A DNA stretch of 64,000 bases from Candidatus Latescibacterota bacterium (GTDB taxonomy: Bacteria; Latescibacterota; UBA2968), in the NCBI GenBank assembly GCA_965204375.1, contig OZ241986.1:5568001-5632000 (forward strand), given 5' to 3'. The notes below the pieces were generated by a model. It was given only the letters and a program-made list of their open reading frames with translations. It did no database searches and was not told where the DNA came from. A program made the translations under genes and the position numbers. Positions 24,878 through 60,879 of this stretch are shown here, piece after piece. The first letter of the stretch is position 1. Each line of letters starts with the position of its first letter.

Positions 24878-24931
24878 TGATATTGGTCCTTTGCGAAAAA
24901 AATATATAGGCCACATTTACCCAAAATGACA

Positions 24932-25031
24932 ATGCCTACACTTCTTGTAGAGATTTGGCGGCAAAGATCGTTAGGCGCAATTCTTCGTCGAACAATTCAT
25001 AAACAGGCGTTTGCTCGCTGAGGGTCTCGCT
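24932..25031 (-). repeat. 100-bp copy of the 3' end of the AlbA_2 ATPase gene (26663-26762)
   Basis: 96/100 identity by manual alignment, same orientation. Confidence 0.92.
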
Positions 25032-25487: not shown

Positions 25488-25600
25488 CGCGTCGTGCCTC
25501 TTTGAATGCGCTGTTGAATTGGGCGAATCAATCACCCGCCGCGCCCTTTAATTTGCACAGCGGTTGCCAACTCTTAAAGTTGCGTAACATCAGTGAGGAA

Positions 25601-26659: not shown

Positions 26660-26666
26660 GCGATGC

Positions 26667-27911: not shown

Positions 27912-27969
27912 ATCAATTCTCCAGATGAATACGCTTGGCACATGCTCAAACGCCTACACTAAGAAGATC

Positions 27970-28434
27970 TTACTTCCTACGCTCATAATATACGACTGTG
28001 AATTGATCATACACCTCTTTTTTTGATATGATCCATTCATTTTCGTCAAATTCGGGGAAGTATTCATCGCCTGGGTATTCATCTTCGATGTACGATAGGA
28101 TCATCCGGTCGGCTTTTGATAGCGTGGCACGATAAATTTCGCCGCCTCCGCAGATGAATACTTCGCGGCTATAGGACCTGGCTTTTTCGATGGCTTCTTC
28201 GAGCGATCTGCACACATCTACGCCTTTTGTGTCGGGCATGGTTCGGCTCACGATGACATGCAGGCGGTCCGGCAGGGGTTTGCCGCCCCAGGATTGATAT
28301 GTCTTGCGCCCTACCAATAAGATATGTCCGGTTGTTGTGCGCCGAAAGTGCTTCGATTCTTCAGAGATGTGCCAGGGCATTTTGTTGTCCCGGCCTATGA
28401 CGCGGTTTTTGTCCATTGCAGCGATAATGGTCAT
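27970..28434 (-). CDS. folA: Dihydrofolate reductase
   Basis: VIG..NKMPW, GRKTY.S, PLPDR, GGGEIY, GD.YFP. Confidence 0.97.
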   Translation of the reverse strand: MTIIAAMDKNRVIGRDNKMPWHISEESKHFRRTTTGHILLVGRKTYQSWGGKPLPDRLHVIVSRTMPDTKGVDVCRSLEEAIEKARSYSREVFICGGGEIYRATLSKADRMILSYIEDEYPGDEYFPEFDENEWIISKKEVYDQFTVVYYERRK

Positions 28435-28445
28435 GTTTTCTCCTG

Positions 28446-28585
28446 TTAGCGATCAGCTTTCAGCCCCAGTCCCTCGTCTTTAATCCGCGTCATCCTTTAA
28501 TCCGTTTAATCCGCGATCCGCCTTTCATCTGTGTGTATCTGCGAAAAACGCTCAAATTACTCGCGTTTTTTTCTGCGGATGCTTT
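28446..28585. repeat. Mosaic repeat tract at cassette end
   Basis: AGCGATCAGCTTTCAGC, (TTAATCCG)n, TCATCTGTGTGTATCTGCG, TCTGCGGATGCTTT. Confidence 0.7.
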
Positions 28586-29778: not shown

Positions 29779-29791
29779 CGCTCTATCTCCT

Positions 29792-29818
29792 GGGCAGGCA
29801 CAAGGCACTGCCCCTACA
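29792..29818 (-). repeat. GTAG-type REP palindrome
   Basis: Minus strand TGTAGGGGCAGTGCCTTGTGCCTGCCC. Confidence 0.8.
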
Positions 29819-44670: not shown

Positions 44671-46719
44671 ATGGCAAATAATTCGAGTACCCGTGCGGAT
44701 TTTGGTGAACATATCGGTTTTATCTGGTCCATTGCGGAACTTCTGCGGGGTAATTACAAGCAATCGGAGTATGGGAAGGTGGTGCTGCCGTTCACGGTTT
44801 TGCGACGGCTCGATTGCGTGCTCGTGCCGACAAAAGACGCTGTGCAGGCGCAGTTGGAAAATTTGCCTGAGAATATTGACGAGACGATGCGCGAAACCAT
44901 GCTCAATATGGCGAGTGAAAATAATTTTCACAATACCAGTCCGTTTACCTTTGAGAAGTTGCTGGATGATCCCGATAATATCGCTGCGAATTTGAACAAT
45001 ATGATTAACGGGTTTTCGTATGATGCGCGTGATATTTTTATCGATCGGTTTAATCTGCCCGAGCAGATTGCGCGGCTTGACCGGGATAATTTGCTCTATC
45101 TGATCGTCAGTCGCTTTGCACAGGCAGATTTGCATCCGGATCGCGTTTCCAATCTGCAGATGGGCTATATTTTTGAAGAACTCATCCGTAGGTTTTCCGA
45201 GCAGAGCAATGAGACGGCTGGCGAGCATTTTACCCCTCGTGAAGTTATCCGGTTGATGGTCAATCTTCTGTTTTTAGAGGATGAGGCCGCGCTTACCCAG
45301 CGGGGTATTATTCGCAAGTTGTATGATCCGGCGTGTGGCACGGGGGGAATGCTTTCTATTGCGGAGGAGTATCTCAGAGAACTCAATCCAGAAGCCAGTT
45401 TGATCGTGTATGGGCAGGAGTTGAATGATGAAAGTTATGCGACCTGTAAATCAGATATGATGATCAAGGGACAAGATGCGAAGAATATTCATCCCGGCAA
45501 TAGTTTTACAGAGGATGGCCTTCCCGATGAGCAATTCGACTATATGTTGTCCAATCCGCCGTTTGGGGTGGATTGGAAGAAGGTGGCATCTGAGATTAAG
45601 GATGAAGCCAATCTCTTCGGTTATAAGGGACGCTTTGGCGCGGGTCTTCCGCGTGTTAGCGATGGTTCTTTGCTTTTTGTGCAGCACATGATTTCAAAGT
45701 TCAATCAGAATGGCGAGTTGTCCCGCCTGGCTGTTGTGCTCAATGGGTCGCCCCTTTTTTCAGGTAGTGCAGGAAGTGGGGAGAGTGAGATCCGTCGCTG
45801 GATTATTGAGAATGATTATTTGGAAGCGATTATAGCTCTGCCTACAGATATGTTTTACAACACGGGTATTGCGACTTATATCTGGATTATTACGAATCAG
45901 AAGACGCCGCAGCGCAAGGGTAAAGTGCAATTGATTGATGCCGCAGATTTTCACGTTGCGATGCGCCAGAGCTTGGGTAGCAAGCGCAAGCAGATTTCCG
46001 ATCAACAGATTGAGGAGATTACGCAGTTGTTTGGCGATTTTGAGGTTGTGGAGGCATGTCCTGAAAAGGGTTTATCCAGAGATCGGGTGAAGATTTTTGA
46101 CAATGTTGACTTTGGGTATCAGCGCATTACTGTCGAACGGCCGCTCAAGCGCAATTTTCAGGTGTGTGAAGATCGCATTGAGATTCTCAAATCGGCGAGG
46201 AGCTTTATTCGTTTGCCGCAGGAACAGCAACAGCGCGTTCTTGAGGTTCTGGCTACGCTTGAGGGTGATTGTCTGTATAAAAATCGTGATGAGTTTATTG
46301 GCATTCTTACGGGTGCTTTTACAGAGGCGCAGGTGAATATTACTACGGCTCAGTTGAAGTTGATTTATCAATCGCTGGGCGAGTATGACGAGACCGCTGA
46401 GGTTTGTACCAATCGCAAGGGCGAGCCAGAACCCGATCCCGATTTGAGGGATTATGAGAATGTGCCGTTGCGAGAGGACATTGATGCGTATTTCGAACGC
46501 GAAATCCAGCCCCATGTGCCCGATGCTTGGATAGATTACAGCAAGACAAAAGTGGGTTATGAAATTCCCTTTAACCGGTATTTCTATACGTTCAAACCGC
46601 CCCGTGCATTAGATGAAATTGGTACGGATTTGATAGGTGTGACGGATAGTATTGTCGAGATGATTGAAGATGTGACGGATGGGATTGTTGAAACGGTTGG
46701 AGGGATTTTGAATGGGTAA
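44671..46719 (+). CDS. hsdM: Type I R-M methyltransferase subunit
   Basis: IWSIAELLRG, GEHFTPREV, YDPACGTGG, NPPF. Confidence 0.97.
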   Translation: MANNSSTRADFGEHIGFIWSIAELLRGNYKQSEYGKVVLPFTVLRRLDCVLVPTKDAVQAQLENLPENIDETMRETMLNMASENNFHNTSPFTFEKLLDDPDNIAANLNNMINGFSYDARDIFIDRFNLPEQIARLDRDNLLYLIVSRFAQADLHPDRVSNLQMGYIFEELIRRFSEQSNETAGEHFTPREVIRLMVNLLFLEDEAALTQRGIIRKLYDPACGTGGMLSIAEEYLRELNPEASLIVYGQELNDESYATCKSDMMIKGQDAKNIHPGNSFTEDGLPDEQFDYMLSNPPFGVDWKKVASEIKDEANLFGYKGRFGAGLPRVSDGSLLFVQHMISKFNQNGELSRLAVVLNGSPLFSGSAGSGESEIRRWIIENDYLEAIIALPTDMFYNTGIATYIWIITNQKTPQRKGKVQLIDAADFHVAMRQSLGSKRKQISDQQIEEITQLFGDFEVVEACPEKGLSRDRVKIFDNVDFGYQRITVERPLKRNFQVCEDRIEILKSARSFIRLPQEQQQRVLEVLATLEGDCLYKNRDEFIGILTGAFTEAQVNITTAQLKLIYQSLGEYDETAEVCTNRKGEPEPDPDLRDYENVPLREDIDAYFEREIQPHVPDAWIDYSKTKVGYEIPFNRYFYTFKPPRALDEIGTDLIGVTDSIVEMIEDVTDGIVETVGGILNG

Positions 46720-46820
46720 AGAGGTGATTCATTGTAGGGGCGAAAAACCTTTCGCCCCATGTGTGGATTTAGCAATTACATCCAGAAGCATTGTAGGGGC
46801 GAGGATGCGGGGGCCAAAAT

Positions 46821-47408
46821 ATGCGATATGATCCTAAACACCATCGCCGTTCAATTCGTTTGAAGGGGTTCGATTATACTCGGGAAGGTGCGTATTTCGT
46901 GACGATTTGTACCCAAAATCAGGCGTGTCTGTTCGGCGAAATTGTGAACGGACAGATGCAGTTGAGCGATGTGGGTGAGGTCGCCGATACATGTTGGCGG
47001 GCTATTCCCGAACATTTTCCCAGGGTTGTATTAGATGCCTTTGTGATTATGCCGAATCATGTGCATGGTATCATTTGGATAGGGCTAGCAAATAGGGTGA
47101 ATGTAGGGGCGAAAAATCTTTCGCCCCTACCGCCCCCACCACCCCGACCATCCCAACGGGACACATCGGCATTTCGGTCGCCATCGAAAACGGTCGGTTC
47201 CATTGTGCGCGGTTTCAAAATTGGCGTTACCAAATGGGTGCGGTCAAACAAAAATTTCTATACCGTATGGCAACGCAATTATTACGAACACATCATCCGG
47301 AATGACACCGCCCTGAACCGCCTTAGACAATATATTACAGACAATCCGGCACGCTGGGAGGATGACCGAGAAAACCCCATCCATCACAGCAAAGGACATA
47401 CATCATGA
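46821..47408 (+). mobile_element. REP-associated tyrosine transposase (RAYT, Y1/IS200-like)
   Basis: RRSIRL.GFDY, YFVTICT, MPNHVH (HUH), WQRNYYEHIIR, YI..NP. Confidence 0.93.
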
Positions 47409-47516
47409 TTCATACCATCAGACCCAAGACCAGTGCCGTAGGGGCGAACAATGCGGGTGAATTGGGTAATGTTGAGGCGAATGATGCAAATGTAGGGGCG
47501 AAAAACCTTTCGCCCC

Positions 47517-47589
47517 GTGCGTAGATTTACACGCCAAAATTTGTTTCGGGTGCGGCAATTTTACACAACCTATCGGGACGATGAAGAAG
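47517..47589 (+). pseudogene. Short fragment resembling DUF1016/YhcG N-terminal region
   Basis: FTRQNLFRVRQFYTTY, lying between two REPs. Confidence 0.55.
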
Positions 47590-47648
47590 GTAGGGGCGAG
47601 GCATGCCTCGCCCGATTTGCAATGCGAGTCCGCCGAGGAGAACGACAC

Positions 47649-48929
47649 ATGAGCTTTAAGAAGTATGAAGCATATAAGGAGAGTGGGGTTGAGTGGTTGG
47701 GAGAAGTGCCGAAGCATTGGGTGATTGGAAAAGTGAAATATGTTACTGAAAACTTGGATAAATCCAGAGTTCCTTTAAGCTCTCTGGAACGTGGAAAAAG
47801 ACCGGGTATATATCCCTATTATGGTGCATCAGGAATCATAGATTACATTGATGACTACCTATTCGACGAGGATACCATATTGTTTGGCGAAGATGGTGCA
47901 AATCTTTTGGCTCGCTCTACGCCACTTGCTTTTCTTGCCACGGGAAAATATTGGGTTAACAATCACGCCCATGTCCTTAAGGCAAAGGATGGTCTTAATC
48001 GCTTTTGGGTTATGGTCTTAGAAAATATTGATATTACACCCGTAGTAAGTGGTTCTGCTCAACCGAAATTAACATCAGAAGCATTGGGCAATTTGAATGT
48101 TGTTTATCCACCAAGTATTGATGAACGTCAAGAAATTCTCACATTCCTCGATAAAGAAACGATAAAGATCGACACCCTCATTGACAAGCAAGAGCAATTG
48201 ATCGCACTGCTTCAGGAAAAGCGACAGGCGGTCATTTCACATGCCGTTACCAGAGGGTTGGACCCGAATGTGAGGATGAAAGACAGTGGGATTGAATGGT
48301 TGGGTGAGGTGCCGGCGCATTGGGAGGTCTCCCTCCTCAAACGGTGGTATCAGGTCACATTGGGCAAGATGCTCAAGTCCAAACAAACATCACCTGATGA
48401 AACTGAAGATCCTTACCTGAGAGCAGCAAATATCCATTGGCAGGGTGTGGATATGACTGATGTCAAACGCATGTGGTTCACGCCAGAAGAAAAGAAGAAA
48501 CTGAAACTTTATAGAGATGATTTGTTGGTCAGCGAGGGCGGTGATGTTGGCCGAAGTTCGCTTTGGAATGAGGAGATTGAAGACTGTTATATTCAGAACT
48601 CAATCAATCGCATTAGAGCACGCGAGGATGCAGACACGCGGTTTCTTTTTTACTGGATGTATTTCATCAAGCACGCGGACTACATAGATATGATCTGCAA
48701 TAAAGCAACCATTGCCCATTTTACCGTTGAAAAGGTTGAGGCGACCCCATGCGTGTATCTACCATTGGAAGAACAAAAGCAAATCGCTGCGTTTCTTGAT
48801 AGCGAAACAACGAAAATCGATACTCTCATTGAAAAATGTGAAACGGCGATTGAGCTACTCAAAGAACGCCGCACCGCGCTGATTTCTGCTGCGGTGACGG
48901 GGAAGATTGATGTGCGGGATGCAGGCTAA
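47649..48929 (+). CDS. hsdS: Type I R-M specificity subunit
   Basis: Two SG.EWLGEVP.HW conserved regions, two TRDs, ends ALISAAVTGKIDV. Confidence 0.96.
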   Translation: MSFKKYEAYKESGVEWLGEVPKHWVIGKVKYVTENLDKSRVPLSSLERGKRPGIYPYYGASGIIDYIDDYLFDEDTILFGEDGANLLARSTPLAFLATGKYWVNNHAHVLKAKDGLNRFWVMVLENIDITPVVSGSAQPKLTSEALGNLNVVYPPSIDERQEILTFLDKETIKIDTLIDKQEQLIALLQEKRQAVISHAVTRGLDPNVRMKDSGIEWLGEVPAHWEVSLLKRWYQVTLGKMLKSKQTSPDETEDPYLRAANIHWQGVDMTDVKRMWFTPEEKKKLKLYRDDLLVSEGGDVGRSSLWNEEIEDCYIQNSINRIRAREDADTRFLFYWMYFIKHADYIDMICNKATIAHFTVEKVEATPCVYLPLEEQKQIAAFLDSETTKIDTLIEKCETAIELLKERRTALISAAVTGKIDVRDAG

Positions 48930-48943
48930 AGAGGCAGGGTAGT

Positions 48944-50581
48944 TTAAAGGTTGAAGTGATCAGCGATTGCATCCAGTTTCTCGCTTACTTCTGGGTGAAT
49001 TTCCTCTTTTGTCATTTGCTCGGCAATTTGGTAGTAGTCGTTTTCTTGTACGTCTATTTCCGATTCCTGCATGATTTTGGAAAGAATATTCTTTGCCTTG
49101 GTATCTTGCAAATAATCCGATGGGCTGAAAGGATCTTCATACAATGCAGGAGGGAATTGCTGCCTCATATAATTATCTGCTCTGTCTGCTGCTTCTTGTC
49201 CGCTGACGCTTTTCACAAAACGTACGATAGATTTGGGATGAATAAGATAGCTTTCAATTTCGTAACGGCCCCAGTGCATCCGTGCCAATCCATTTTGTAA
49301 ATTTTTCGGGTCTGTATTGACCTCACGTCCATCGCTGTCACGCAATTCTATGCCAGGGATACCTTGTTGTACCAATTTCAATGCTTCAAAGTGTCTTTCC
49401 GCCTTTATGCCATCTACGTCTGGATGCGTCTGGTAAATGGTTGGCTTCCAAAAAGGTTTATCAAGAAATGAGAAGAGGGGATGAGCCAATTTTTCTGCCC
49501 AAACGCGCAGAATGGCGATGTCGGAGTGTCCTTCCACGTATAAGATTCCTGGTGCGGTGAGTGCTAAGGCGATATCTACATTGTCTAGCGCGGTGAGGGA
49601 AGTAATCAAGGCGACACGTTCCGATTTGTCAGCGGCAATTTGGGGTCGTCCATCCATCAAGACGCATAAACGCTGTGGAGCAACGGCGTTAATAAGTCGC
49701 TCTGAATGCGTGGCAATAATCAGTTGTGTTCCGTTTTGATGGGCATAGTCGCGCAAATCTCGATACATTTTGTCCTGTAACAAGATATGCAAATGTGCAT
49801 CAGGCTCGTCAATTAACAATACCGATGCTTCTTTCGCCAGTAAAGCAGAGTAAACCAATAAAACCTGTAGAAACCCACTTGCCGCACTGCTCAAGTCATA
49901 AGTTTGGCCTTGCTCCGAATGACGGTAAGGGGCGTATATTTCAGCACCGGCACTTGGAGATAATAACTCATAACCAAAAAAAGACTTGACGACTTCTTGC
50001 AACTTCTGCCATTTCTGGGCATCCTGGCTGACGGCAAGAAGGAGATTACGCAACACGCTACCCGCCTGCGCTCGTGCTAATCGAGCTGGGATAACTACGG
50101 GATCAAAAGGAGACTCTTTAATCTCCACACCTGAGAGGGGCGGGATATAAGTGGGAATGAGCGGATCATTGATATACCGCTCTAGATCATTTTCGCTCAC
50201 ATCCTTCGCAGGACGAATAACCGCCAACTCTGTCTCTTTATAGACGATCTCAAAGCCGATTTTCCATTGGTTCGTATGCAACCAGACAGATGCGGATTCT
50301 TGAACGTTCTTATCTTTCCAAAGATGGCCAAAGTCTGCCAGTGGAACCGAATGGAAGCTCAACAAGTTAAGGTTAATTGGGGGATAGTTCTCGTCTTCTT
50401 CTCGGGCCAGATCCGGGTTATTTTCCGACCACTGGAAGGCGATTTCCGACCAGGCAGCGATAGCCTGGAGAAGCGATGTCTTACCAGAGTTGTTTGGTCC
50501 GGCGATGACGAGATGGGCTGGAAGATCAAATTCCAGGTGCTCGAATTTTTTAAAGTTATTGATGAGGACTCTACGGATCAT
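48944..50581 (-). CDS. ABC/AAA ATPase + TOPRIM (OLD-like) protein
   Basis: GPNNSGKT, ASGFLQ, LLIDEPDAHLH, ATHS; TOPRIM YVEGHSD, RDSD, YEIESYL. Confidence 0.85.
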   Translation of the reverse strand: MIRRVLINNFKKFEHLEFDLPAHLVIAGPNNSGKTSLLQAIAAWSEIAFQWSENNPDLAREEDENYPPINLNLLSFHSVPLADFGHLWKDKNVQESASVWLHTNQWKIGFEIVYKETELAVIRPAKDVSENDLERYINDPLIPTYIPPLSGVEIKESPFDPVVIPARLARAQAGSVLRNLLLAVSQDAQKWQKLQEVVKSFFGYELLSPSAGAEIYAPYRHSEQGQTYDLSSAASGFLQVLLVYSALLAKEASVLLIDEPDAHLHILLQDKMYRDLRDYAHQNGTQLIIATHSERLINAVAPQRLCVLMDGRPQIAADKSERVALITSLTALDNVDIALALTAPGILYVEGHSDIAILRVWAEKLAHPLFSFLDKPFWKPTIYQTHPDVDGIKAERHFEALKLVQQGIPGIELRDSDGREVNTDPKNLQNGLARMHWGRYEIESYLIHPKSIVRFVKSVSGQEAADRADNYMRQQFPPALYEDPFSPSDYLQDTKAKNILSKIMQESEIDVQENDYYQIAEQMTKEEIHPEVSEKLDAIADHFNL

Positions 50582-50936
50582 GTTTGTTCACCTCTGGCAC
50601 AAAAAGTGGAGGGGCTTCGCTCCAGACAATGCACCCTTCTCGTAGCCAGTAATGACATCGACAGGGGAGCCCGGTCACATGAACCGAGGGTAATAGCGAA
50701 ATTCGTCCGTCCGAGTGTTCTTTTATGCGCCACTTTTTGACTACCTGGGGCGATACATCAAGGTGAATAATCTGTTGGCATGCTTGACGTGGACAAACAA
50801 TTGCCGCATAGAAGGGATGGTCACGCCCCCCAATGATATACACTGTATTTTTCTCAGTGTTTTCCGGTAAATCCTCTACCCACTTTGTGCGGTAAGGATG
50901 GAAACGCGCCCACAAATTGAATAACCATCTAATCAT
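50571..50936 (-). CDS. DUF6527 family protein (Bub-associated)
   Basis: CPRQAC, SLLPSV, CRCHYWLREG. Confidence 0.85.
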   Translation of the reverse strand: MIRWLFNLWARFHPYRTKWVEDLPENTEKNTVYIIGGRDHPFYAAIVCPRQACQQIIHLDVSPQVVKKWRIKEHSDGRISLLPSVHVTGLPCRCHYWLREGCIVWSEAPPLFVPEVNKHDP

Positions 50937-52320
50937 GACTAATGTTGTTTTTTACAAGCAAACTTCTGTCGCCTGTTCCCTTATATCGTTTTAGTAACGG
51001 ATGCGGAATGCCCGTGTCCATATCGTTTTCATAGCACCCATGCACCAGACGAAACCTTTGAGTTCCAAATTCGTAGTTGTCGTCAAAACGGTAGGTGTGA
51101 ATCCTGGCCATAAAATCATTAAAAGCCATGCACGCCGCTTGCATATTGACAGACATGACAGCGGGTTGTTCCTCGCCGACTGCCGCCAAATATCCGGCCA
51201 CGCGCTGTTCCTGGTAGTATGATGGGTCTTTTCTCTGCCAATTTTCCGCTGTTACCTGTTCCATTGTGTACGCGCCTCGCGAAAGCAAGCTTCCGCCTTC
51301 CGGGTGGATGTAATGAGACACAGCATCAGCAGAGGTAATGCCACCTTTGCCATCGGCGTCGATATCAACGCCTACATCAAAGTATGGGATCAAGTACGCA
51401 CTCGCCAGGCAATCCAAATGGTATCTGCCAAAGGCGGAATCCACACAACCAAAAATCACATCGCAATCCACCAAAGCCTCTACAACATCCGGTGAGTCTG
51501 TTAATCCTTGGAGGGCTTTGACTTCTGTCTCCATTCCCATTGCCTGAATTGCCTGTTTAATTGCCAATACTTTCGGCTGTTTCTTACTCGCAGCGTTCAT
51601 TGTGCTGTTGATAATGCGGTTCAGATTTTTCTCTTCTAAAATATCGTTATCCACTATTACCAACTCTCCTACACAATTGCGGACGAGAAGTTCTATTATG
51701 ATGCTACCAGTGCCTGAGCAGCCGATAACTCCCACCCTCATATTGTGCAACAACTCCAGCGTTCCTTTACCAAAGGTTTGTGACAGCTTACTCTGGTACG
51801 CAGTGTGTTTTCTTTTTTTGCTCTGCTTCCAGAGGCGGATATTGTTGCCGACTACGGAAACCGTCGCCAGGTTAGCGAACTTACCATGCGCGTCAACGGT
51901 GCGTGCATTGATTGCGCCATTCGACAACATGATTGCGGACCCATTTGGGCGATTGTCGTCAAACCAGTTACAAACCGAAGGAAATAACTCTCGATCGTTT
52001 AGATCATCAATTTCTGAAAATCGGCCGTATCCCTTAGGATGTGAATGAATGGTAACGATAGACTGACCGCATAGGTCTATTTCGCTAATTTTTTCTGGTG
52101 GAAGGTGATCGCCAAAAGGCCAGGAAACAAAGTTTTTCTTTCTCCTGGAATCACTATGCGGCAAAGATAAAACATCCGTGGCCAGAAGACGGTGGGACTG
52201 TTTTCCCGTTCCTTGATTACACAGTAAAATCGCGGCGGCTTCCAGTCCATCGCCGGGAAACAGATGCTTAAAAACAGCCTCATGGAGGCACTCAGTCATC
52301 GCCAGAATGGCGGAGTTCAT
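50929..52320 (-). CDS. JAB/JAMM peptidase - ThiF/E1 fusion
   Basis: HLFPGDGLEAAA, HSHPx6SxxD; GCSGTGS, NLNR, GCVDS, AGY, PAV.SVN. Confidence 0.92.
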   Translation of the reverse strand: MNSAILAMTECLHEAVFKHLFPGDGLEAAAILLCNQGTGKQSHRLLATDVLSLPHSDSRRKKNFVSWPFGDHLPPEKISEIDLCGQSIVTIHSHPKGYGRFSEIDDLNDRELFPSVCNWFDDNRPNGSAIMLSNGAINARTVDAHGKFANLATVSVVGNNIRLWKQSKKRKHTAYQSKLSQTFGKGTLELLHNMRVGVIGCSGTGSIIIELLVRNCVGELVIVDNDILEEKNLNRIINSTMNAASKKQPKVLAIKQAIQAMGMETEVKALQGLTDSPDVVEALVDCDVIFGCVDSAFGRYHLDCLASAYLIPYFDVGVDIDADGKGGITSADAVSHYIHPEGGSLLSRGAYTMEQVTAENWQRKDPSYYQEQRVAGYLAAVGEEQPAVMSVNMQAACMAFNDFMARIHTYRFDDNYEFGTQRFRLVHGCYENDMDTGIPHPLLKRYKGTGDRSLLVKNNISHD

Positions 52321-53423
52321 CACCCTATCGCACCTTTCATCTCATTTTTGACATACTCAATGTGCGTCACAAGGGTATCAATTCCCGGTCTCCACTGATA
52401 GTGACGCGACCATCGTTGCCAGGTCCGACCAAAATGGATTTCAGACGCCAGCGCACCTATTGTCCCGCCATTCGCTGTATTGAGTGGTGGGGCAAAATAG
52501 AACATGTCCAAAGCCGATCCGGGATAACCGCTTGGAATGAGTAACATCAGTGTAGATTTTTCTATCGTATAGCCGTTCGGGATAGGGAAATCCTCTATGA
52601 GCAAACCAAATTTTCCGTTACCTTCAGATATTTTTTTCCATTTGGATGGAAAATTCCCATCCAAATACTCAGTATCTTCCGGCAACAGGCCATAGAGGGC
52701 ACCTTGTTGCGCTTGTCGTCGAACGGTTTCAAAGCGCTCAATGCCAGGACAAGCCAGGTTGACCTTCTCATCGGCATCGATTTTTTCTCTTTTACCGCCG
52801 CGTAGTTTCTGGTTGAGCGACCATTCATCAAAGTTTTTCCCGGCCAAGGCCAAAATTTCGGTTCCTATGATATCCTCGGTGGCCACGGTGTACTTGTCTC
52901 CGTCTATGCGGATGCGATATTTTTTTCCTTTGGGTGGACGGCGTCCGTGCTTTCCACACTCCTCTATATCGATTGAATCATCGCCATTGATGATGGGAGG
53001 GATAACAAAATACGAGTCCTCATCCTGAATAACAATTGTTATATCATCCGCAATTTCCACATCCACGCCGTCTTCGATATCCGCAAACAGGCGTCCCTGA
53101 GGGAATTTATCATCTAGTTCTTTTAGTGCTTTACCGGTAACTTTTGCAGTCGGTAGAGCAATGCGGGAACCGTTGAACTCAGGCTGTATTTCATTCCGTA
53201 ATAGGGGATTATTCTCTATACAACTTTCTCCAACCACAAATTTTTCTCCGCCGTGGATGATCAGATATTCCTTTGGCAAAAGAGGAATGTCTATGCCGTC
53301 TTCACGGTTCAAAAAAAGTCGTTTTCCGTTGCAGTCGGCAAGTTCACAAAGAACGGTAACGGGAATAAATCCCGAATGGATGGGCTTTTCCTGCCCGTCA
53401 ATTTGGATAAAAAGTTGATTCAT
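52320..53423 (-). CDS. Multi-ubiquitin-like (about 3 beta-grasp) - prokaryotic E2 (family E) fusion
   Basis: ATG after AGGAG. Three IDG/FNG-led repeats, PGIERF...AQQG, then IPSGYP..ALDMFY and WQRWSRH. Confidence 0.9.
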   Translation of the reverse strand: MNQLFIQIDGQEKPIHSGFIPVTVLCELADCNGKRLFLNREDGIDIPLLPKEYLIIHGGEKFVVGESCIENNPLLRNEIQPEFNGSRIALPTAKVTGKALKELDDKFPQGRLFADIEDGVDVEIADDITIVIQDEDSYFVIPPIINGDDSIDIEECGKHGRRPPKGKKYRIRIDGDKYTVATEDIIGTEILALAGKNFDEWSLNQKLRGGKREKIDADEKVNLACPGIERFETVRRQAQQGALYGLLPEDTEYLDGNFPSKWKKISEGNGKFGLLIEDFPIPNGYTIEKSTLMLLIPSGYPGSALDMFYFAPPLNTANGGTIGALASEIHFGRTWQRWSRHYQWRPGIDTLVTHIEYVKNEMKGAIG

Positions 53424-53499
53424 GACTATAAACTCCTTATGTTCTTCAGTGATAGATGGTTTTTGATCTATCAAGATTGCTTGACATTTTACAATTTTC

Positions 53500-53538
53500 G
53501 TCACAATTTTCGTGACGATATGTCATAATTATTATGAC
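53500..53538. promoter_or_regulatory. Two 17-bp palindromic operators in the divergent promoter region
   Basis: GTCACAATTTTCGTGAC (53500) and GTCATAATTATTATGAC (53522), 22 bp apart. TTGACA at 53481. Confidence 0.75.
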
Positions 53539-53570
53539 GTTCTGTATCAATTTAAAGGATTTACATCACT

Positions 53571-53909
53571 ATGTCAACCCCTACTACTGGTATATTTCCC
53601 GATAATCTGAAAAAGATACGAGAAATCAAAGGATTAAGCCAGACTGAACTTGCAAAAAGATCTGGACTTCAGCCATCCGCAGTCTCACATTTTGAGACGG
53701 GTAGGCGGGCACCTTCCTTTGATAACTTAAAGCGTTTGGCAGACACGCTTGAGGTCACAACTGACTTTCTTATAGGTCGTGAAATTGATCCAACTACGTC
53801 TGGCCCGACCTTAGAAAGCATTTTCAGAAATGCTCAAGAAATGGCAGATGATGACCGTCAGAAATTGGCTGAGTTCGCGGAATTTCTTGCCAGCAAAAAG
53901 AAATCGTAG
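53571..53909 (+). CDS. Xre-family HTH repressor (CapH-like)
   Basis: LSQTELA, VSHFETGRRAPS, LADTL.V.TDFL.G. Confidence 0.9.
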   Translation: MSTPTTGIFPDNLKKIREIKGLSQTELAKRSGLQPSAVSHFETGRRAPSFDNLKRLADTLEVTTDFLIGREIDPTTSGPTLESIFRNAQEMADDDRQKLAEFAEFLASKKKS

Positions 53910-53924
53910 TGGTAGGAGTAAATT

Positions 53925-54773
53925 GTGAATCAAAGATACCGGTTATTGCAAGCAGAAGCTCATGCTGAAAATTTGGTGAAACAGCTTGGTATTGCATCGC
54001 TTCCTATCAACCCTATTGAGATTGCCGAGCAACATGAAATCAGGTGTAAGCCTGAAAAGATACAGGGATTTTCTGGTTGTTTGATAAAACGAGGAGACGT
54101 TTTCGGCATTCTTTATTCATCTAAATTCAACAATGAAGGGTTTATTCGATTTACTGTGGCACACGAATTAGGGCACTATTTCTTACCAGGCCATCCAGAA
54201 CTTCTATTTCCAACAGGTAATGGTACTCACTATTCTCACAACGGATTTACAGCCCGTGACTTTCACGAGCTTGAGGCCGACCACTTTGCCGCAGGGTTAC
54301 TCATGCCTCGACATTTGTTTGGAGTAGCACTGGGGCAAGAGACAATTCCCGGATTTTATGCAATTGAATCACTTTCCGAAAAATGTAAAACATCAATTAC
54401 TGCTACTGCTATCCGATATGCGACCTTTGCAGATTATCCCGTTGCTCTCATTGTAAGTTCCAATAATAGAGTTGAGTACTCGTTTATGTCTGACACGATG
54501 AAAACAAAAATTCGAGGAGCCTCGTGGCTGAAAAAAGGAGAGGGCATACCTCCACAAAGCCAAACCGCTGCATTCAATGAAGATCAAAACAACATTCTAT
54601 CGGGTGCAAAAGAGGAAAGTAGCTCCTACTTGGATGCCTGGTTTGCAGGAGCACAGTCGGAGGAAATCAATGAAGATGTGATTGGACTGGGTGGCTATGG
54701 AAAGACCCTGACGGTTCTATTTTCCGAAGAACCACTAACAGATGATAACGAATTAAATTTTGGAGATTATTGA
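53925..54773 (+). CDS. ImmA/IrrE metallopeptidase (CapP-like)
   Basis: RFTVAHELGH, E.EAD.FA..LLMP, plus C-terminal GAF-like extension. Confidence 0.9.
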   Translation: MNQRYRLLQAEAHAENLVKQLGIASLPINPIEIAEQHEIRCKPEKIQGFSGCLIKRGDVFGILYSSKFNNEGFIRFTVAHELGHYFLPGHPELLFPTGNGTHYSHNGFTARDFHELEADHFAAGLLMPRHLFGVALGQETIPGFYAIESLSEKCKTSITATAIRYATFADYPVALIVSSNNRVEYSFMSDTMKTKIRGASWLKKGEGIPPQSQTAAFNEDQNNILSGAKEESSSYLDAWFAGAQSEEINEDVIGLGGYGKTLTVLFSEEPLTDDNELNFGDY

Positions 54774-54864
54774 TTACAAACTAAGTGAATTTATTCATGA
54801 TTTGATTGCAGAATCGGGACAGGGAAAAGGCGTCTCAACTGATATACTCCGTGAAGGGGTAAAA

Positions 54865-55314
54865 ATGCGACAAACCATTGAGGCTACGATTGATGAACAG
54901 GGCAATGTGCGGTTATTACAGCCCATCCAGTTGTCAAAACCACGACGCGCTTATGTGACAATTCTCGCTGATGAGCGAGATATTCCTGAAACGGCATTGC
55001 TCAGTGAAGCCGCACTTGCCGAAGACTGGAATCGTCCAGAGGAAGACGCCGCTTGGTCACATCTACACCCTGCGCCTGTTCGCCTCGACTGGCGTCAAGT
55101 GCGCTCCGTTGTCGAGGCAGCCGCTTCCGAGTTGAATTGGAATGTTGAAATCTCTATTGATACTGCTGAAAACCTCATTGTCGTGGCTGTGCCAGAGGAC
55201 CAGGACGACTTGATGGTGGAGACTGAGTTTGATTTCTACGCATTGATTATGAATCAATTAGACCAAGATGTCTTTAAGACAATTAATTTCTTTTTCGTTT
55301 CGGATTCTGACTGA
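54865..55314 (+). CDS. Chimeric antitoxin-like protein
   Basis: EATIDEQGNVRLL...LSEAALAEDWNRPEEDAAW followed by an unrelated acidic tail. Confidence 0.6.
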   Translation: MRQTIEATIDEQGNVRLLQPIQLSKPRRAYVTILADERDIPETALLSEAALAEDWNRPEEDAAWSHLHPAPVRLDWRQVRSVVEAAASELNWNVEISIDTAENLIVVAVPEDQDDLMVETEFDFYALIMNQLDQDVFKTINFFFVSDSD

Positions 55315-56526: not shown

Positions 56527-59500
56527 ATGACCAGAAAACCCACATCTGAAAAAGACTTTGAAGACGCGATTGAAGCGTGGCTGGTAGGTCGCGCTGGATA
56601 TGCCAAAGCCGATAGTCGCCAGTTCGATTCCGAACTCGGTCTGGACAAACACACGTTGCTCGCGTTTCTCAAAGAGACGCAGTCCGATACAATGGACGCG
56701 CTCAAGAGAAGCTATGGCAACGCGGTGGAGGAGGCTGTTGTCAAGCGGATTGCCTCTGAGTGCGATAAGCGCGGGTTGCTCGATGTGGTGCGGAATGGCG
56801 TGCGTGACCGGGGGCAACATCTGCGTCTGGCTTATTTTCGCCCGCCGACCCGTCTGAATGTCGAAACGGAAAAACGCTATAATCAGAATCGCCTCACGGT
56901 GATGCGACAGGTGCGTTATGATGTGGAGAGTAATCATTCGATTGATATGCTCTTGTCGCTCAATGGTCTGCCCATTGCTACGGTCGAACTCAAAAACGCT
57001 TTCACGGGACAGCGTACGGGTCACGCTATTCAGCAATATATCAAGGATCGCGTCCCCACCGTCAGAACCCCTCTTATTCAGTTCAAAAAACGCGCGCTCG
57101 TGCATTTTGCCGTTGATACCGATGACGTGTATATGACGACGCGGCTTTCGGGTGATAAGACTTTCTTCCTGCCTTTTAATACGGGTAATAAAGGTGGTAA
57201 AGGCAATCCCGACGATCACCAGTATCAGACGGGATACAAGACCGGTTATCTCTGGGAAGAAATCTGGCAGCGCGATAGTTGGCTGGATATTATCCACAGG
57301 TTTATCCACCTTCATGTGGAAAAAAGTACCGATATCGCCACGCGCAAAACGACGACCAGAGAAACCCTCATTTTTCCCCGCTATCACCAGCTCACCGCTG
57401 TTCGCAATCTGATTGCAGATACCAGAGCCAAAGGTGTGGGTCACAATTATCTGATTCAGCACAGTGCCGGGTCGGGTAAGACCAATACGATTTCGTGGCT
57501 CGCCCATCAGCTTGCCAGTATCCACGATGATGCGGATGCGCCTATTTTTAATTCGGTTGTGGTTGTTTCCGACCGGCGCAATCTGGATAAGCAGTTGCAG
57601 GATAATATCTATCAGATCGAACACAAGCAGGGTGTGGTTGTCAAAATTGATGAGGACCGCAATTCAAGTGATCTGGCTGATGAACTCAATAAGGGGACAA
57701 AGATCATTATTACGACGCTGCAGAAATTTTCTTTTTTGATGGGCAAGGTGGAGGATCTGTCAGACAGGAAATTTGCGGTGATTGTAGATGAGGCTCATAG
57801 CAGTCAGGGTGGGCGAAGTGCGAGCAATTTACGCGGTGTGTTGGGTGGACTGGAGAAAGCAGAGGCTGAGGAAGAAGATCCGCCCGATATGGAAGATTTG
57901 ATTCTTGCGGAGGCCAAACGTCGAGGGCCACAGCCGAATATCAATTTTTACGCTTTTACGGCAACGCCGAAGCACCGTACGCTCGAGATGTTTGGCGTGC
58001 GCGATGCAGAGGGCAATCCGCAGCCGTTCCATCTTTATGCCATGCGTCAGGGTATTGAAGAGGGTTTTATCCACGATGTGCTCAAGCATTATACCACGTA
58101 CAGGACGTATTACAAATTGTCCAAAGCGATTGAAGACGATCCCGAGGTGGATGAGAGCAAGGCGAAGCGGGCTATTGCGCGGTTTATGAGTTTGCATCCG
58201 CACAATATCGCGCAGAAGACGGAGATTATGGTTGAGCATTTTCGGGCTTTTACCCGTAAGAAGATTAATGGCAATGCGAAGGCGATGGTTGTGACGCGCT
58301 CGCGGTTACATGCGGTGCGCTACAAACAGGCTTTTGAGAAATATATTGAGGCAAGAGGATATACCGGTCTCAAAACGCTTGTGGCGTTTTCTGGAACTGT
58401 TTTCGATCCAGATGTGGAAGATAAGCAGTACACGGAGGCGAGCATGAACGGCATTAGTGAACGAGAATTGCCCGCCTATTTTGCTACGCCCGAATATCAG
58501 ATTTTGATTGTTGCGGAGAAGTATCAGACGGGTTTTGATCAACCTCTTTTGCATACGATGTTCGTCGATAAGCGGCTTGCTGATCTGAAGGCTGTTCAGA
58601 CTCTGTCGCGGCTTAACCGCACGGCGGGTGGGAAGGTAGATACGTTTGTGTTGGATTTTGCCAATGAGATTGACGAGATCAAAGAGGCGTTTAAGCCGTA
58701 TTACGAACAGACGGAGATCGATGAACCGACCGATCCCAATCACCTCTATACGCTGGATGCAAGACTGAAAAGCGAACCTGTGCTGCGCGATGAGGAGATT
58801 GGGGAATTTGCCAGGACCTATTTTAAGCTCCAATCACTTCGAACAAGGGATGATCACGGACAACTCAACAAGTGGGTCGATCCCGCTGTGGAGCGATTCA
58901 AACAATCTTATGGTGTCTCGGGTTCGGATGGGGACGCATACACGGAAGAAGGCGAGATTTTTAAAAGCACCTTGCAGAGCTTTATACGGCTGTATGGCTT
59001 TTTGAGTCAGATTATCGAATGGCAGGATCCCGCGTTGGAGAAGCTCTATGCGTATGCGAGGCATTTGTTCACAAAATTGCCTCGGCGTTCGGGCGAGGGG
59101 ATGTTGGAACTCGACGATGAAGTTGCACTTTCGCACTATCGCAACGAGATGACATTTTCTGGTAGCGGAGCTTTGGAGGTGGGAGACAAAGATTTTGTGC
59201 AGGGCGTGGGTGATGTTGGTACGGCAACGGCCAAAGACGACCATACCGCACCGCTGTCGTCTATTATTGAAGTGATCAACGAGCGGTTTGGCACCAGTTG
59301 GACGGATGAGGATAGATTGTTGTTTGATCAGATTTCAGGCGATATGGTGCGAAATGCACGTCTTGCGGAGCAGGCGCAGGCCAATTCAATAGATCAGTTT
59401 AAGCAGGTTTTTGAACCCGAAGTGATGAAGGCATTTGTTCAACGGCAGGGCAGAAACCAGAAGATTGTGAACGATTTTATGTCTGATAGAGCACTGCGCG

Positions 59501-59553
59501 ATTTCATCATGGACGCATTGCTCAAAGAGGTCTATAACGCTGCCCGAGTTTGA
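56527..59553 (+). CDS. hsdR: Type I R-M restriction subunit
   Basis: NGLP..T.ELKN, QHSAGSGKT, DEAH, FTATPK, TGFDQP, QTLSRLNR. Confidence 0.97.
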   Translation: MTRKPTSEKDFEDAIEAWLVGRAGYAKADSRQFDSELGLDKHTLLAFLKETQSDTMDALKRSYGNAVEEAVVKRIASECDKRGLLDVVRNGVRDRGQHLRLAYFRPPTRLNVETEKRYNQNRLTVMRQVRYDVESNHSIDMLLSLNGLPIATVELKNAFTGQRTGHAIQQYIKDRVPTVRTPLIQFKKRALVHFAVDTDDVYMTTRLSGDKTFFLPFNTGNKGGKGNPDDHQYQTGYKTGYLWEEIWQRDSWLDIIHRFIHLHVEKSTDIATRKTTTRETLIFPRYHQLTAVRNLIADTRAKGVGHNYLIQHSAGSGKTNTISWLAHQLASIHDDADAPIFNSVVVVSDRRNLDKQLQDNIYQIEHKQGVVVKIDEDRNSSDLADELNKGTKIIITTLQKFSFLMGKVEDLSDRKFAVIVDEAHSSQGGRSASNLRGVLGGLEKAEAEEEDPPDMEDLILAEAKRRGPQPNINFYAFTATPKHRTLEMFGVRDAEGNPQPFHLYAMRQGIEEGFIHDVLKHYTTYRTYYKLSKAIEDDPEVDESKAKRAIARFMSLHPHNIAQKTEIMVEHFRAFTRKKINGNAKAMVVTRSRLHAVRYKQAFEKYIEARGYTGLKTLVAFSGTVFDPDVEDKQYTEASMNGISERELPAYFATPEYQILIVAEKYQTGFDQPLLHTMFVDKRLADLKAVQTLSRLNRTAGGKVDTFVLDFANEIDEIKEAFKPYYEQTEIDEPTDPNHLYTLDARLKSEPVLRDEEIGEFARTYFKLQSLRTRDDHGQLNKWVDPAVERFKQSYGVSGSDGDAYTEEGEIFKSTLQSFIRLYGFLSQIIEWQDPALEKLYAYARHLFTKLPRRSGEGMLELDDEVALSHYRNEMTFSGSGALEVGDKDFVQGVGDVGTATAKDDHTAPLSSIIEVINERFGTSWTDEDRLLFDQISGDMVRNARLAEQAQANSIDQFKQVFEPEVMKAFVQRQGRNQKIVNDFMSDRALRDFIMDALLKEVYNAARV

Positions 59554-59673: not shown

Positions 59674-60879
59674 ATGATTCATAAATTTTCCATATCCAAC
59701 TTCCATTCGGTCCGCGAAGAAGTCGTTCTCGATCTACGTATTCCGGGAACAGCTCCCGACCTGCCGCGGTTCCGCCAGAGCAAAGCAAAGCCGGATATTC
59801 GGCTTCCTTCTGCCGTCGTGCTCATAGGTCCCAACGGGTCGGGCAAGACAACGCTACTCAATGCGCTGGTCACTACCGCCATCATTGCCTCATTCGCATC
59901 ATCCACTGAAAAGACCAGCCCGCTCAAGACCTTTTTCCCCTTTTTTTCTGAAGAAACCAGAAACGAACCGACGCGGTTTTGTATGGAGTTCGAAACAGAT
60001 TGGCTGGACGAGACCCATCAGTTGTTCCGATACGAGTTGGCAGTGGTACGCGGTTCTACTGGCTCCGATGATCCTTTCTTCTCTTACGAAGCCCTGTCCT
60101 ACTTCCCAAAAGGCCGCCCCAGGCGCCTTTTCGAGCGCGGTGCTCCGGAAGAACCTATATACGTCTCTAACGAATTTGGTCTTAAACCCAGAGATGATCG
60201 CCTCCAGGCGGTTCGGGCAGACACATCGGTGATCGCCACGCTCGCCATGCTCAATGTGCCCCTGGCGATGCGTATTGCAAAATGGATGTACGGTTTTCTT
60301 TCGTCATCCAATATCATGATTCGTGAGAGATGGGCTCCTTCGACCCAAAGTGTGATTGACAGACTTGAGAGCGATCCCGATATGGGATCCTGGGTTAGAA
60401 ATCATATCCGATCCAGTGATTTGGGGATTCAGGATATAACTATTTCTGACCAGTCTGAGAAAAAGGAAGTGTTCTTTGACCATCACGGGCTTGATACGCC
60501 GATCCCCCTGCGTTTTGAATCCAGTGGGACGAAGCGCCTGTTCCATCTGTTGCCTCAGATCAAGGTCGCGTTCAGCCTCGGTGTTCCTGCTGTTTTTGAT
60601 GAGATAGATGGCGATCTCCACGTGGATATTGCTGGCGAGATTCTTAGCTGGTTCCGTTCCCAGGAGGTCAATCCTTCAGGCGCACAACTTTTTGTCTCCT
60701 CTCACAATGTCGGCTTGCTCGACCATCTGGAAAAGGAGGAGATTTTTATCGTCGAGAAGGACAGCAGTGGCGCAACCCGTGTACATGGAGCACAAGATGT
60801 GCAGGGTCTCCGCCGAGATACACGTCTCTATCCCAAATACCGGGCGGGGGTGCTCGGTGGTATTCCAAAGATTGGTTAA
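59674..60879 (+). CDS. AAA_21 ATPase (RloA/AbiLi-like), no RloB partner
   Basis: GPNGSGKT, ESSGTK, FDEID..LH, AQL..SSH, ends Y..G.LGGIP. Confidence 0.85.
   Translation: MIHKFSISNFHSVREEVVLDLRIPGTAPDLPRFRQSKAKPDIRLPSAVVLIGPNGSGKTTLLNALVTTAIIASFASSTEKTSPLKTFFPFFSEETRNEPTRFCMEFETDWLDETHQLFRYELAVVRGSTGSDDPFFSYEALSYFPKGRPRRLFERGAPEEPIYVSNEFGLKPRDDRLQAVRADTSVIATLAMLNVPLAMRIAKWMYGFLSSSNIMIRERWAPSTQSVIDRLESDPDMGSWVRNHIRSSDLGIQDITISDQSEKKEVFFDHHGLDTPIPLRFESSGTKRLFHLLPQIKVAFSLGVPAVFDEIDGDLHVDIAGEILSWFRSQEVNPSGAQLFVSSHNVGLLDHLEKEEIFIVEKDSSGATRVHGAQDVQGLRRDTRLYPKYRAGVLGGIPKIG

Follow-up and report, generated by a model that had tools for sequence, protein, structure and literature searches.

A Type I Bub operon with a predicted OLD-family nuclease gene coupled to bubE inside a type I restriction-modification locus

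A 64,000-nucleotide (nt) stretch of contig OZ241986.1 from a Candidatus Latescibacterota bacterium (assembly GCA_965204375.1, positions 5,568,001 to 5,632,000; hereafter the window) holds an operon that joins a ubiquitin-like conjugation system of the Bub type to a gene for a predicted OLD-family ATPase-TOPRIM nuclease. The best explanation of the locus is a Type I Bub operon under a CapH/CapP switch, situated inside a type I restriction-modification (RM) locus, in a lineage that acquired an OLD nuclease gene coupled to bubE. The pairing of bubE with the ATPase gene is not due to chance because the arrangement is conserved in other genomes. The most likely reading, to which we give about even odds, is that this Bub subtype uses the nuclease as one of its working modules. 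It is put forward because of a linkage seen from both the ATPase and the Bub side, the coupling of the two genes, a single origin, co-inheritance, the habit of the wider family, a different nuclease in the same slot of a sister clade, and the pattern of decay, together with a weakly supportive co-fold and RNA-library contigs across the operon. The operon genes and the divergent control genes have the following window coordinates.

52320..53504, minus strand: BubAB, ubiquitin-like protein (Ubl)-E2 fusion, 394 residues as listed (Pfam Multi_ubiq and Prok-E2_E)
50929..52323, minus strand: BubCD, JAB peptidase-E1 fusion, 464 residues (Pfam Prok-JAB and ThiF)
50571..50936, minus strand: BubE, DUF6527 putative serine protease, 121 residues (Pfam DUF6527, 1.4e-13)
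48944..50581, minus strand: predicted OLD-family ABC ATPase-TOPRIM, 545 residues, fourth gene of the operon (AAA_15/AAA_21, motifs, fold)
53424..53570, no strand: putative divergent promoter/operator region (three perfect inverted repeats)
53571..53909, plus strand: CapH, helix-turn-helix (HTH) repressor (Pfam HTH_3; PADLOC capH, 3.1e-26)
53925..54773, plus strand: CapP, IrrE/M78-type metallopeptidase (Pfam Peptidase_M78; PADLOC capP, 1.3e-62)

The list of open reading frames (ORFs) and the Pfam matches place BubAB, BubCD, BubE and the ATPase-TOPRIM protein in four consecutive minus-strand ORFs that run from 53504 to 48944. The junction sequences give an overlap of 8 nt between bubCD and bubE and of 11 nt between bubE and the ATPase gene, and both values agree with an earlier note on this DNA. 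The 1-nt overlap that the note gave for bubAB and bubCD holds when counted from the next ATG and becomes 4 nt when counted from the GTG start. The 3' end of bubE holds the start codon of the ATPase gene, and judged by sequence the ATPase gene is translationally coupled to bubE. The true start of BubAB is most likely the ATG at 53423, which gives a protein of 367 residues, because AAGGAG lies 9 nt upstream and, of the 11 fused homologues aligned (A4), nine have lengths of 367–372 residues. A spacer of 147 nt separates this ATG from the divergent capH and capP genes, and it contains perfect inverted repeats at 53450–53473, 53498–53518 and 53522–53538. The HTH and IrrE pair described in the note proved to be CapH and CapP in the PADLOC matches, a predicted HTH repressor and M78/IrrE peptidase next to the promoter region of a Bub operon. 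Such a pair stands beside 168 of 544 published Bub operons (31%) according to the available text of PMC11601596. Promoter-like hexamers on both strands overlap the palindrome at 53522–53538; their count in the region does not depart from chance. Scans of 48800–53700 were at the chance level, with 4 promoter-like sites against 7.3 ± 3.0 expected and 6 terminator-like sites against 4.4 ± 1.9 expected.

The first three genes form an ordinary and apparently functional Type I Bub operon, judged by the structure matches and the intact catalytic residues. Type I Bub comprises BubAB, BubCD and BubE (Ye et al., PMC11601596, available text). In the 394-residue form of BubAB, Multi_ubiq covers residues 196–260 and Prok-E2_E covers residues 273–390, and the E2 part matches Citrobacter BubB (PDB 9eav_D, E = 6e-21). 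All 12 aligned sequences have G268, D333, S366 and H368. The last three line up with Citrobacter D299, S333 and H335 in an alignment to 9eav_D that was indexed by hand, and these are the catalytic residues given for Citrobacter BubB in the portion of PMC11601596 available. Relatives with split genes have a BubA that ends 2 residues past the glycine equivalent to G268. BubCD matches the Citrobacter BubCD structure 9ea4 (E = 2.8e-73). Its residues E28, D106, R236 and Y378, invariant across the four sequences of alignment A2, correspond to the published E28, D104, R227 and Y370 in a hand-indexed alignment to 9ea4, which assigns E28 and D106 to the JAB site, R236 to adenylation and Y378 to the E1 tyrosine. 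BubE scores 50.9 bits against the DUF6527 cut-off of 23.6, and all 22 aligned proteins, from both Bub types, carry S84, H95, C48, C53 and C92. The window therefore contains the BubAB fusion, the E2 residues, the BubCD fusion and the BubE dyad that define Type I, and the Bub-type operon recognized in the earlier note is borne out by domains, structure matches and residues alike. As a separate observation, BubA and BubB are fused in 11 of 23 listed loci of L011–L037 (region 4800–6004), as in the window, and are separate genes in 11 of the 23; L027 is ambiguous.

By motifs and fold, the fourth protein is an OLD-family ATPase-TOPRIM nuclease, with a predicted ABC ATPase at the N terminus and a predicted C-terminal TOPRIM domain that carries the Glu and DxD residues of the family. 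Walker A K34, Walker B D258/E259 and H-loop H292 are kept in all covering rows of a 43-row alignment. All 43 rows carry TOPRIM residues E350 and D354, 42 of them carry D415, and D417 is kept in 22 of the 23 Bub-linked rows; E441, E443 and K535 are also conserved. PADLOC models for NsnB, AriAB, AriA and GajA match the protein. The AriAB match (E = 5.7e-24) spans residues 203–464, and the GajA models match only to about residue 369. A profile of four orthologues searched against the PDB found the Thermus scotoductus OLD protein 6p74 as the best match (2.7e-10), with PtuA, a retron ATPase, AriA and GajA next in rank; the protein shares about 14% identity with 6p74. The AlphaFold2 model of the whole protein (pLDDT 86.7) has 6p74 as its top Foldseek match (1e-14). 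A second structural comparison of this model covered residues 1–332, which match PtuA and SMC/Rad50 heads with Z scores of 18–21.

No Pfam TOPRIM model matches either the whole ATPase protein or its C-terminal 212 residues, and a profile of this C-terminal domain finds nothing among PDB sequences, AriB included, even at E = 10. The commonest weak Pfam match of the C terminus is DUF4435 (7 of 30 members, best E = 0.057). The TOPRIM assignment is therefore drawn from the motifs and from a fold search of the domain by itself. Folded alone, the domain reached a pLDDT of 94.8, and its best match was PARIS AriB (8v46_D; Z = 10.7, root mean square deviation 4.0, 187 of 212 residues aligned). Second was the Burkholderia OLD protein BpOLD (6nk8_B; Z = 9.6, root mean square deviation 4.2, 165 residues aligned). 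These were the only two of 48,161 chains with a Z score of at least 8. Foldseek ranked the C-terminal regions of Xanthomonas and Burkholderia OLD and AriB first. The OLD-like call of the earlier note thus stands on motifs and C-terminal fold, though no Pfam TOPRIM model was matched. AriB is reported to cut tRNA (PMC12409363, available portion), and because AriB is the best C-terminal match the substrate of the nuclease could be either DNA or tRNA. The ATPase protein diverges faster than BubCD (mean identity 0.55 versus 0.71), chiefly in the linker and the TOPRIM part, and a lysine at K190 is conserved only in the Bub-linked ATPase clade. Within that clade, residues 301–440 (about 49260–49680) have mean identities to the window protein of 0.31 (linker) and 0.49 (TOPRIM), compared with 0.63–0.74 for segments of the ATPase domain; the linker/TOPRIM version of the window is unlike those of all its closest relatives.

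The pairing was sampled from both sides. Pattern scans of one genome per species yielded seven distinct relatives of the ATPase protein with 42–76% identity. All seven loci hold Bub genes or a remnant, and in five of them BubA/B, BubCD and BubE lie directly upstream of the ATPase. Locus L008 retains only the C-terminal half of bubE beside an intact ATPase ORF, and in L010 the ATPase gene is set apart from bubE by an IS66 transposase and a DruA-like ORF. How often the ATPase follows Bub genes was a check that the earlier note proposed, and from the BubCD side the ATPase was found right after bubE, a bubE remnant or the deleted position of bubE in 21 of 29 loci. These 21 include L027 (bubE remnant only), L028 (no bubE) and L014 (ATPase in two frames). 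In L013, 31 ATPase codons are left and are followed by an AAA_14/DUF4143 gene; about 10 ATPase codons and a 42-nt internal piece are left in L038; L019 has neither bubE nor the ATPase; L039 ends inside bubCD; and L031, L032, L034 and L035 carry a different fourth gene after bubE. The ATPase start codon lies inside bubE at 19 of 19 junctions (18 loci and the window), with overlaps of 4–26 nt and GAGG or GGAG 9–11 nt upstream of the start.

In a tree of 23 Bub-linked ATPase proteins and 20 others, from which L014, two remnants and duplicate fetches were left out, the Bub-linked proteins fall on one side of a branch with SH-aLRT support of 100 and a stem length of 0.78, and the tree shows a single origin of the Bub-linked clade. 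Pairwise identities of the ATPase and BubCD proteins are correlated (r = 0.91, 20 loci), a value reached by 0 of 2000 permutations. The hosts are metagenome-assembled genomes (MAGs) labelled Latescibacterota, Binatia, Thermodesulfobacteriota/Dadabacteria, Rhodothermales, and Gamma- and Alphaproteobacteria. These comparisons show that the ATPase gene and bubCD were inherited together in MAGs whose labels span at least five phyla. The word-based search for BubE homologues reached only relatives of at least 54% identity and so gave no sample of distant Bub operons. Distribution within the genus is patchy: DUF6527 was found in 4 of 20 other genomes and an ATPase match at the level of the Bub clade in one of 20 (G088). 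Plasmids gave a single distant match (27%, Nostoc) and viral contigs gave only generic ABC-ATPase matches, so neither search points to a known plasmid or phage as carrier.

The wider family was examined for the settings in which the ATPase occurs. At 50% clustering it comprises 361 representatives at E ≤ 1e-30, and the 150 that were listed (E ≤ 1e-56) are mostly full length. Among 168 genomes of the window's phylum, the ATPase family is present in 49 (77 listed matches at E ≤ 1e-15, a few genes appearing as two pieces) and DUF6527 in 28 (40 listed matches, one gene appearing as two pieces). Twenty relatives without Bub genes were fetched, with 29–42% identity. In L078 the ATPase is flanked by a type III-like methylase and a ResIII protein. 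An Hma-like DUF499 ATPase lies downstream in L083, L085 and L087 (PADLOC HmaC for L083), and a DUF1156 methylase lies upstream in L084, L087 and L088 (PADLOC HmaB for L087). Loci L084, L086 and L088 adjoin AAA_21 and DUF4276 pairs, and in L085 an AAA_21/AAA_15 gene is found upstream and a fragment of DUF4276 downstream. In a metagenome sample of 80 loci, kept from 484 relatives with 32–44% identity, 64 loci place a methylase and/or a ResIII-type protein of the L078 type next to the ATPase, and 51 have the two together. The recurrent unit is a three-gene operon of an N6_N4 methylase (~900 residues), an OLD-like ATPase-TOPRIM protein (~550 residues) and a ResIII helicase-type protein (~1040 residues), with overlaps of typically 4 nt (L078:1751–9266 and L118–L197, for example L123:1224–8790). 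These nearest relatives without Bub genes are middle genes with 4-nt overlaps, and the family therefore usually works inside multi-gene systems. In the sequence comparison, the Bub-linked clade is one branch of a family that is usually found as the middle gene of methylase-ATPase-restriction operons. The earlier note had held that its reading would suffer if close homologues occurred mainly without Bub genes. The outcome divides with distance: relatives with at least 42% identity form one clade and all have Bub genes or remnants, and more distant full-length relatives with 29–44% identity never do, being placed alone or within methylase/restriction operons.

A sister Bub clade has another nuclease in the same slot, an ATP-dependent enzyme of the BPTD_3080 family encoded after bubE. 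Loci L031, L032, L034 and L035 have BubCD proteins 55–58% identical to that of the window, and their genes run on one strand in the order methylase, AAA_15 ATPase, small ORF, BubA, BubB, BubCD, BubE and a protein of ~966 residues. The whole Bub operon of L031 lies inside an RM-like operon (L031:412–10619), and L032, L034 and L035 are arranged likewise. The ~966-residue protein of L031 belongs to the BPTD_3080 family of restriction endonucleases (NCBIfam, 1117 bits against a cut-off of 800), and the fourth proteins of L032, L034 and L035 are 55–74% identical to it. We found no literature that uses the family name BPTD_3080. The sister-clade methylase is 38–40% identical to the L078 methylase, and the sister-clade endonuclease is 32% identical to the L078-type ResIII protein. 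Bub in the sister clade is inserted into an RM-like operon of the type that the ATPase clade of the window appears to come from. The upstream AAA_15 ATPase and small ORF of L031 were considered as a split ATPase-TOPRIM pair, and this was rejected at hhalign probabilities of 59% and 0.1%.

Many Bub-linked loci have RM-type genes no more than 6 kb away. Genes of type I RM are near L011, L014, L015, L017, L020, L023 and L036, MmeI-like genes near L012 and L018, and DUF1156 methylases near L026, L027, L029 and L037; no RM gene was found in the typed flanks of L016, L021, L024 and L030. Some of 20 further DUF6527 loci of the phylum, Type II or split Type I, have a gene on the same strand after bubE. 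A small HSDR_N_2 protein follows in L099–L101, an EcoRI-type methylase and GmrSD follow in L116 and L117, and two small ORFs and a type IIG-like methylase follow in L098. The small proteins of the Type II loci L099:4901–5449, L100:6384–6905 and L101:6384–6911 have 173–182 residues with a weak HSDR_N_2 (restriction-endonuclease-like) domain and are encoded directly after bubE. One of these 20 loci is a second Bub operon in the genome of the window, outside the window itself, a Type II operon at G000:C1:4042653–4054820 (L107), with Multi_ubiq, DUF6791-ThiF and DUF6527 genes, an HTH and M78 peptidase pair upstream, and a convergent SocA/Panacea-domain gene downstream.

The loci with damaged Bub genes were compared with intact ones. 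The ATPase is damaged in three of the four loci with damaged Bub parts, and L027 is unchanged; the sample is small. L008 has D415A, L028 (no bubE) has D417N, and L010 is truncated at the N terminus with a branch length of 1.02. Motif changes occur in 0 of 19 tree rows from loci with all Bub genes. Damage to Bub alongside damage to the ATPase would look the same under general decay of the locus.

Association of the Bub proteins with the ATPase, which the earlier note proposed to check by co-folding, was modeled with BubA (residues 28–268), BubB (269–394) and the ATPase, with their alignments. The score was 0.43 (runs of 0.46, 0.43 and 0.00), compared with 0.17 for the best control, and it fell to 0.00 when BubA was replaced. 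The mark for a pass is reached by 116 of 157 solved complexes and by 2 of 215 mismatched pairs; at scores up to 0.60, it is reached by only 18 of the 157 solved complexes and by both passing mismatches. Agreement between runs covers at least 0% of contacts, and the partner pLDDT is at least 79. The model gives weak support for an association of BubA/BubB with the ATPase and shifts the odds only slightly. The score above the controls speaks for the proposed contact, the run at 0.00 speaks against it, and gating of the nuclease is not established by it.

Sequencing runs labelled as sponge metagenomes hold this stretch or close relatives of it. DNA run X4 has a 4830-nt contig over the stretch with 131 differing letters. 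The RNA-library run X19 has a 3829-nt contig, a ~93% relative, that bridges the ATPase, bubE, bubCD and bubAB genes, where carry-over of DNA is possible. Three contigs of the RNA-library run X18 cover the stretch; X18 and X19 belong to one study, and their contigs are 90–95% alike to the window. RNA-library contigs of this sort prove neither transcription nor a single transcript.

A mechanism can be proposed from the protein families. DNA damage or infection would activate CapP, the CapH repressor would be removed, and the four genes would be expressed from one transcript. The JAB domain of BubCD would cut BubAB after G268. The E1 (Y378) and the E2 (S366/H368) would then pass BubA via oxyester intermediates to target lysines, and BubE (S84/H95) would take BubA off again. 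The OLD nuclease would be the nucleic acid-cutting effector arm, acting on DNA as in OLD or on tRNA as in AriB. Its activity or targeting may be linked to BubA conjugation, with the nuclease as a substrate or partner of BubA or as a substrate-recognition factor otherwise lacking in Bub. A stronger version, which we consider unlikely, is that BubA ligated to or assembled on an OLD-type nuclease switches the nuclease on, that BubE switches it off, and that Bub cassettes are damage-induced modules that borrow RM nucleases. If true, this would be the first ubiquitin-like modification that directly gates a bacterial immune nuclease and the first physiological Bub target. Bub cassettes would then be second-line modules plugged into RM operons, with an OLD-like nuclease here and a BPTD_3080-type nuclease in the sister clade. 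More generally, an OLD nuclease kept at bubE is a specific candidate for a BubA substrate or partner or for the killing arm, and the locus adds a genetic context for OLD-family nucleases, which are classed by partner genes. Bub cassettes inside RM operons also hint at layered defence.

Several results weigh against the nuclease being a module of Bub. Bub persists without the ATPase in L013, L019 and L038, a contig of RNA run X20 shows the same ATPase deletion as L038, and the ATPase ORF persists without Bub in L008. Only six ATPase genes adjoin a DUF6527 gene in the 168 phylum genomes, among the matches listed, and this ATPase is in 0 of 20 further DUF6527 loci (Type II or split Type I) fetched from the phylum. 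In the portion available, the published table of 544 Bub operons has no entry for an additional gene. BubE, searched with a hidden Markov model, or any other Bub gene is in 0 of the 80 metagenome relatives. About half of the 20 relatives without Bub genes (L080–L082, L089, L090 and L092–L097) are solitary among housekeeping genes, and the ATPase protein can therefore probably act alone. The co-fold pass is of the weak kind that is more often wrong than right, with one run at 0. Adjacent genes share their history regardless of interaction, and the r of 0.91 and the monophyly therefore show no mechanism. These data lead to the alternative of an operon fusion without mechanistic coupling, in which a self-sufficient, Class-1-like OLD nuclease is kept for its damage-inducible expression by CapH/CapP and acts in parallel to Bub. 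We regard this as a serious explanation that falls somewhat short of probable. It accommodates the solitary full-length relatives, the best fold and PDB sequence match to the single-gene Thermus protein 6p74, the loss of either module without the other (including the intact L008 ATPase ORF beside a BubE fragment only) and the absence of the ATPase from most Bub operons. Defence genes cluster anyway, and the window has other AAA_21 ATPases and Schlafen-like genes. It accounts less well for a single capture after which the start codon was kept inside bubE at 19 of 19 junctions in several labelled phyla, for nearest relatives that are operon-internal subunits and not solitary genes, for the loss of Bub parts together with DxD changes in L008 and L028, and for a co-fold score of 0.43 against 0.17 that lends weak support to contact.

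Two further explanations place the ATPase or the whole operon in another context. One is a PARIS-like guard of the surrounding RM system, which would fire when RM is blocked by an anti-restriction protein, with Bub merely inserted beside it. PARIS senses the anti-restriction protein Ocr (PMC11464382, available portion), the best match of the C-terminal domain is AriB (Z = 10.7), and PADLOC AriAB matches at 5.7e-24. Methylase/restriction operons also enclose relatives in 64 of 80 metagenome loci, in L078 and in L083, L085 and L087, which are Hma-like, RM genes are within 6 kb of many Bub-linked loci, and the window cassette is between hsdS and hsdR. The RM type and side vary, however, and are absent from the typed flanks of L016, L021, L024 and L030, whereas the bubE-ATPase junction is constant; the window ATPase gene is convergent with hsdS and not co-oriented; and a search of PDB sequences with the C-terminal profile fails to reach AriB even at E = 10. 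We judge a guard of this kind improbable. The other explanation is a non-antiviral response to DNA damage or stress, with the ATPase-TOPRIM protein in DNA processing or repair and Bub modifying host proteins. CapH and CapP respond to DNA damage, an archaeal OLD-family ATPase is reported in cell-cycle progression (PMC12796447, available portion), and no Bub operon has yet been protective against phage in Escherichia coli (PMC11601596 and PMC13373217, text available). A function of this type is hard to reconcile with the patchy presence in the genus (DUF6527 in 4 of 20, the Bub-clade-level ATPase in 1 of 20), the spread over MAGs labelled as different phyla, and the nesting in RM loci beside transposases and other defence genes, and we give it very little weight.

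The operon was compared with known systems. The Type I Bub operon of Citrobacter sp. RHBSTW-00271, as far as the available text of PMC11601596 describes it, has the same three genes in the same order, all the published catalytic residues and CapH and CapP; the window adds the overlapping fourth gene for an OLD-family nuclease and the nesting in a type I RM operon. OLD classes are defined by partner gene or gene context, and none is listed with a Ubl system (PMC10568477). Among Class 1 proteins (Thermus scotoductus OLD 6p74 and P2 Old), 6p74 is the best match in sequence and whole-model fold. Class 1 is a single gene away from other defence genes (PMC10568477), whereas the window gene overlaps bubE inside a type I RM locus. 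Gabija GajA (Class 2) and retron OLD effectors (Class 3) are likewise subunits of multi-gene systems; the difference is that the window gene is partnered with a ubiquitin-like conjugation machine. No UvrD-like helicase, the Class 2 partner, is among the neighbors, which are bubE and the convergent hsdS, and no RVT family of the Class 3 type was found among the window ORFs scanned, with no search made for noncoding RNA. PARIS AriA/AriB and the merged AriAB (Class 4) combine an ABC ATPase with a DUF4435-type TOPRIM domain in an RM-related setting, as the window protein may do; AriB is its best C-terminal fold match, but DUF4435 is matched weakly in the window family and AriB is not reached by the C-terminal sequence profile. 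Type II CBASS (Cap2/Cap3) and Bil likewise use E1/E2-type conjugation and a reversing peptidase to control or make up an antiviral response (available text of PMC11601596); the conjugated moiety in CBASS is the signaling enzyme itself, and the target in Bil is a phage tail protein. The unnamed methylase-ATPase-ResIII operon of the sister ATPase clade has a protein of the same architecture with 38–44% identity and short overlaps, but its partners are a DNA methylase and a helicase-nuclease.

The pairing had been thought undescribed in the earlier note, and text searches of two Bub preprints and one later paper, as far as those sources were available, contain no mention of it. The preprints PMC11601596 (text and Table S1) and PMC11601603 mention no ATPase, nuclease or effector in the parts available. 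Titles and abstracts of the literature searched include no Ubl system paired with an OLD nuclease, and no literature from 2025 on was found for bacterial oxyester ubiquitination-like conjugation. The enzymology of Bub itself is solved, but no target, effector or phenotype is yet known (PMC11601596, PMC11601603 and PMC13373217, available portions), and the 2026 CapK/CapS paper still describes Bub as without a shown phenotype (PMC13373217, text available).

The Bub cassette and two uncharacterized ORFs are nested between hsdM/hsdS (44671–48929) and hsdR (56527–59553) of the type I RM locus. hsdS is convergent with the ATPase gene, and 14 nt separate the two stop codons. The flanking features are as follows.

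44671..46719, plus strand: hsdM, type I RM methylase (Pfam HsdM_N and N6_Mtase; PADLOC MTase_I, 9.8e-278)
47517..48929, plus strand: hsdS, type I specificity subunit (Pfam Methylase_S; PADLOC Specificity_I, 1.6e-113)
54760..55314, plus strand: orf184, no Pfam or PADLOC family, overlapping the end of CapP by 14 nt
56527..59553, plus strand: hsdR, type I restriction subunit (Pfam HSDR_N, ResIII, SWI2_SNF2 and T1R_D3-like; PADLOC REase_I)

orf184 is also present in the closest related locus, as pieces 88–89% identical in L001/L011, where it is split (L001:1918–3822) by ~1.3 kb that holds a 415-residue ORF. The one domain that it matches, RelN-antitoxin, is hit weakly and below the cut-off (E = 5e-4). 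An AAA_21/AAA_15 ABC-type ATPase of 401 residues (59674–60879) begins 120 nt past hsdR on the same strand, and a further AAA_21/AAA_15 ATPase lies at 14808–16055. The block at 22592–29808 has thymidylate synthase and dihydrofolate reductase genes interleaved with a UDG-family gene and a PDDEXK_4 nuclease gene, and within it are two Schlafen AlbA_2 and HATPase_c_4 genes at 26667–27941 and 28552–29808. The G+C content is 0.61–0.63 at positions 1–6000 of the window and 0.44–0.55 at 6001–64000.

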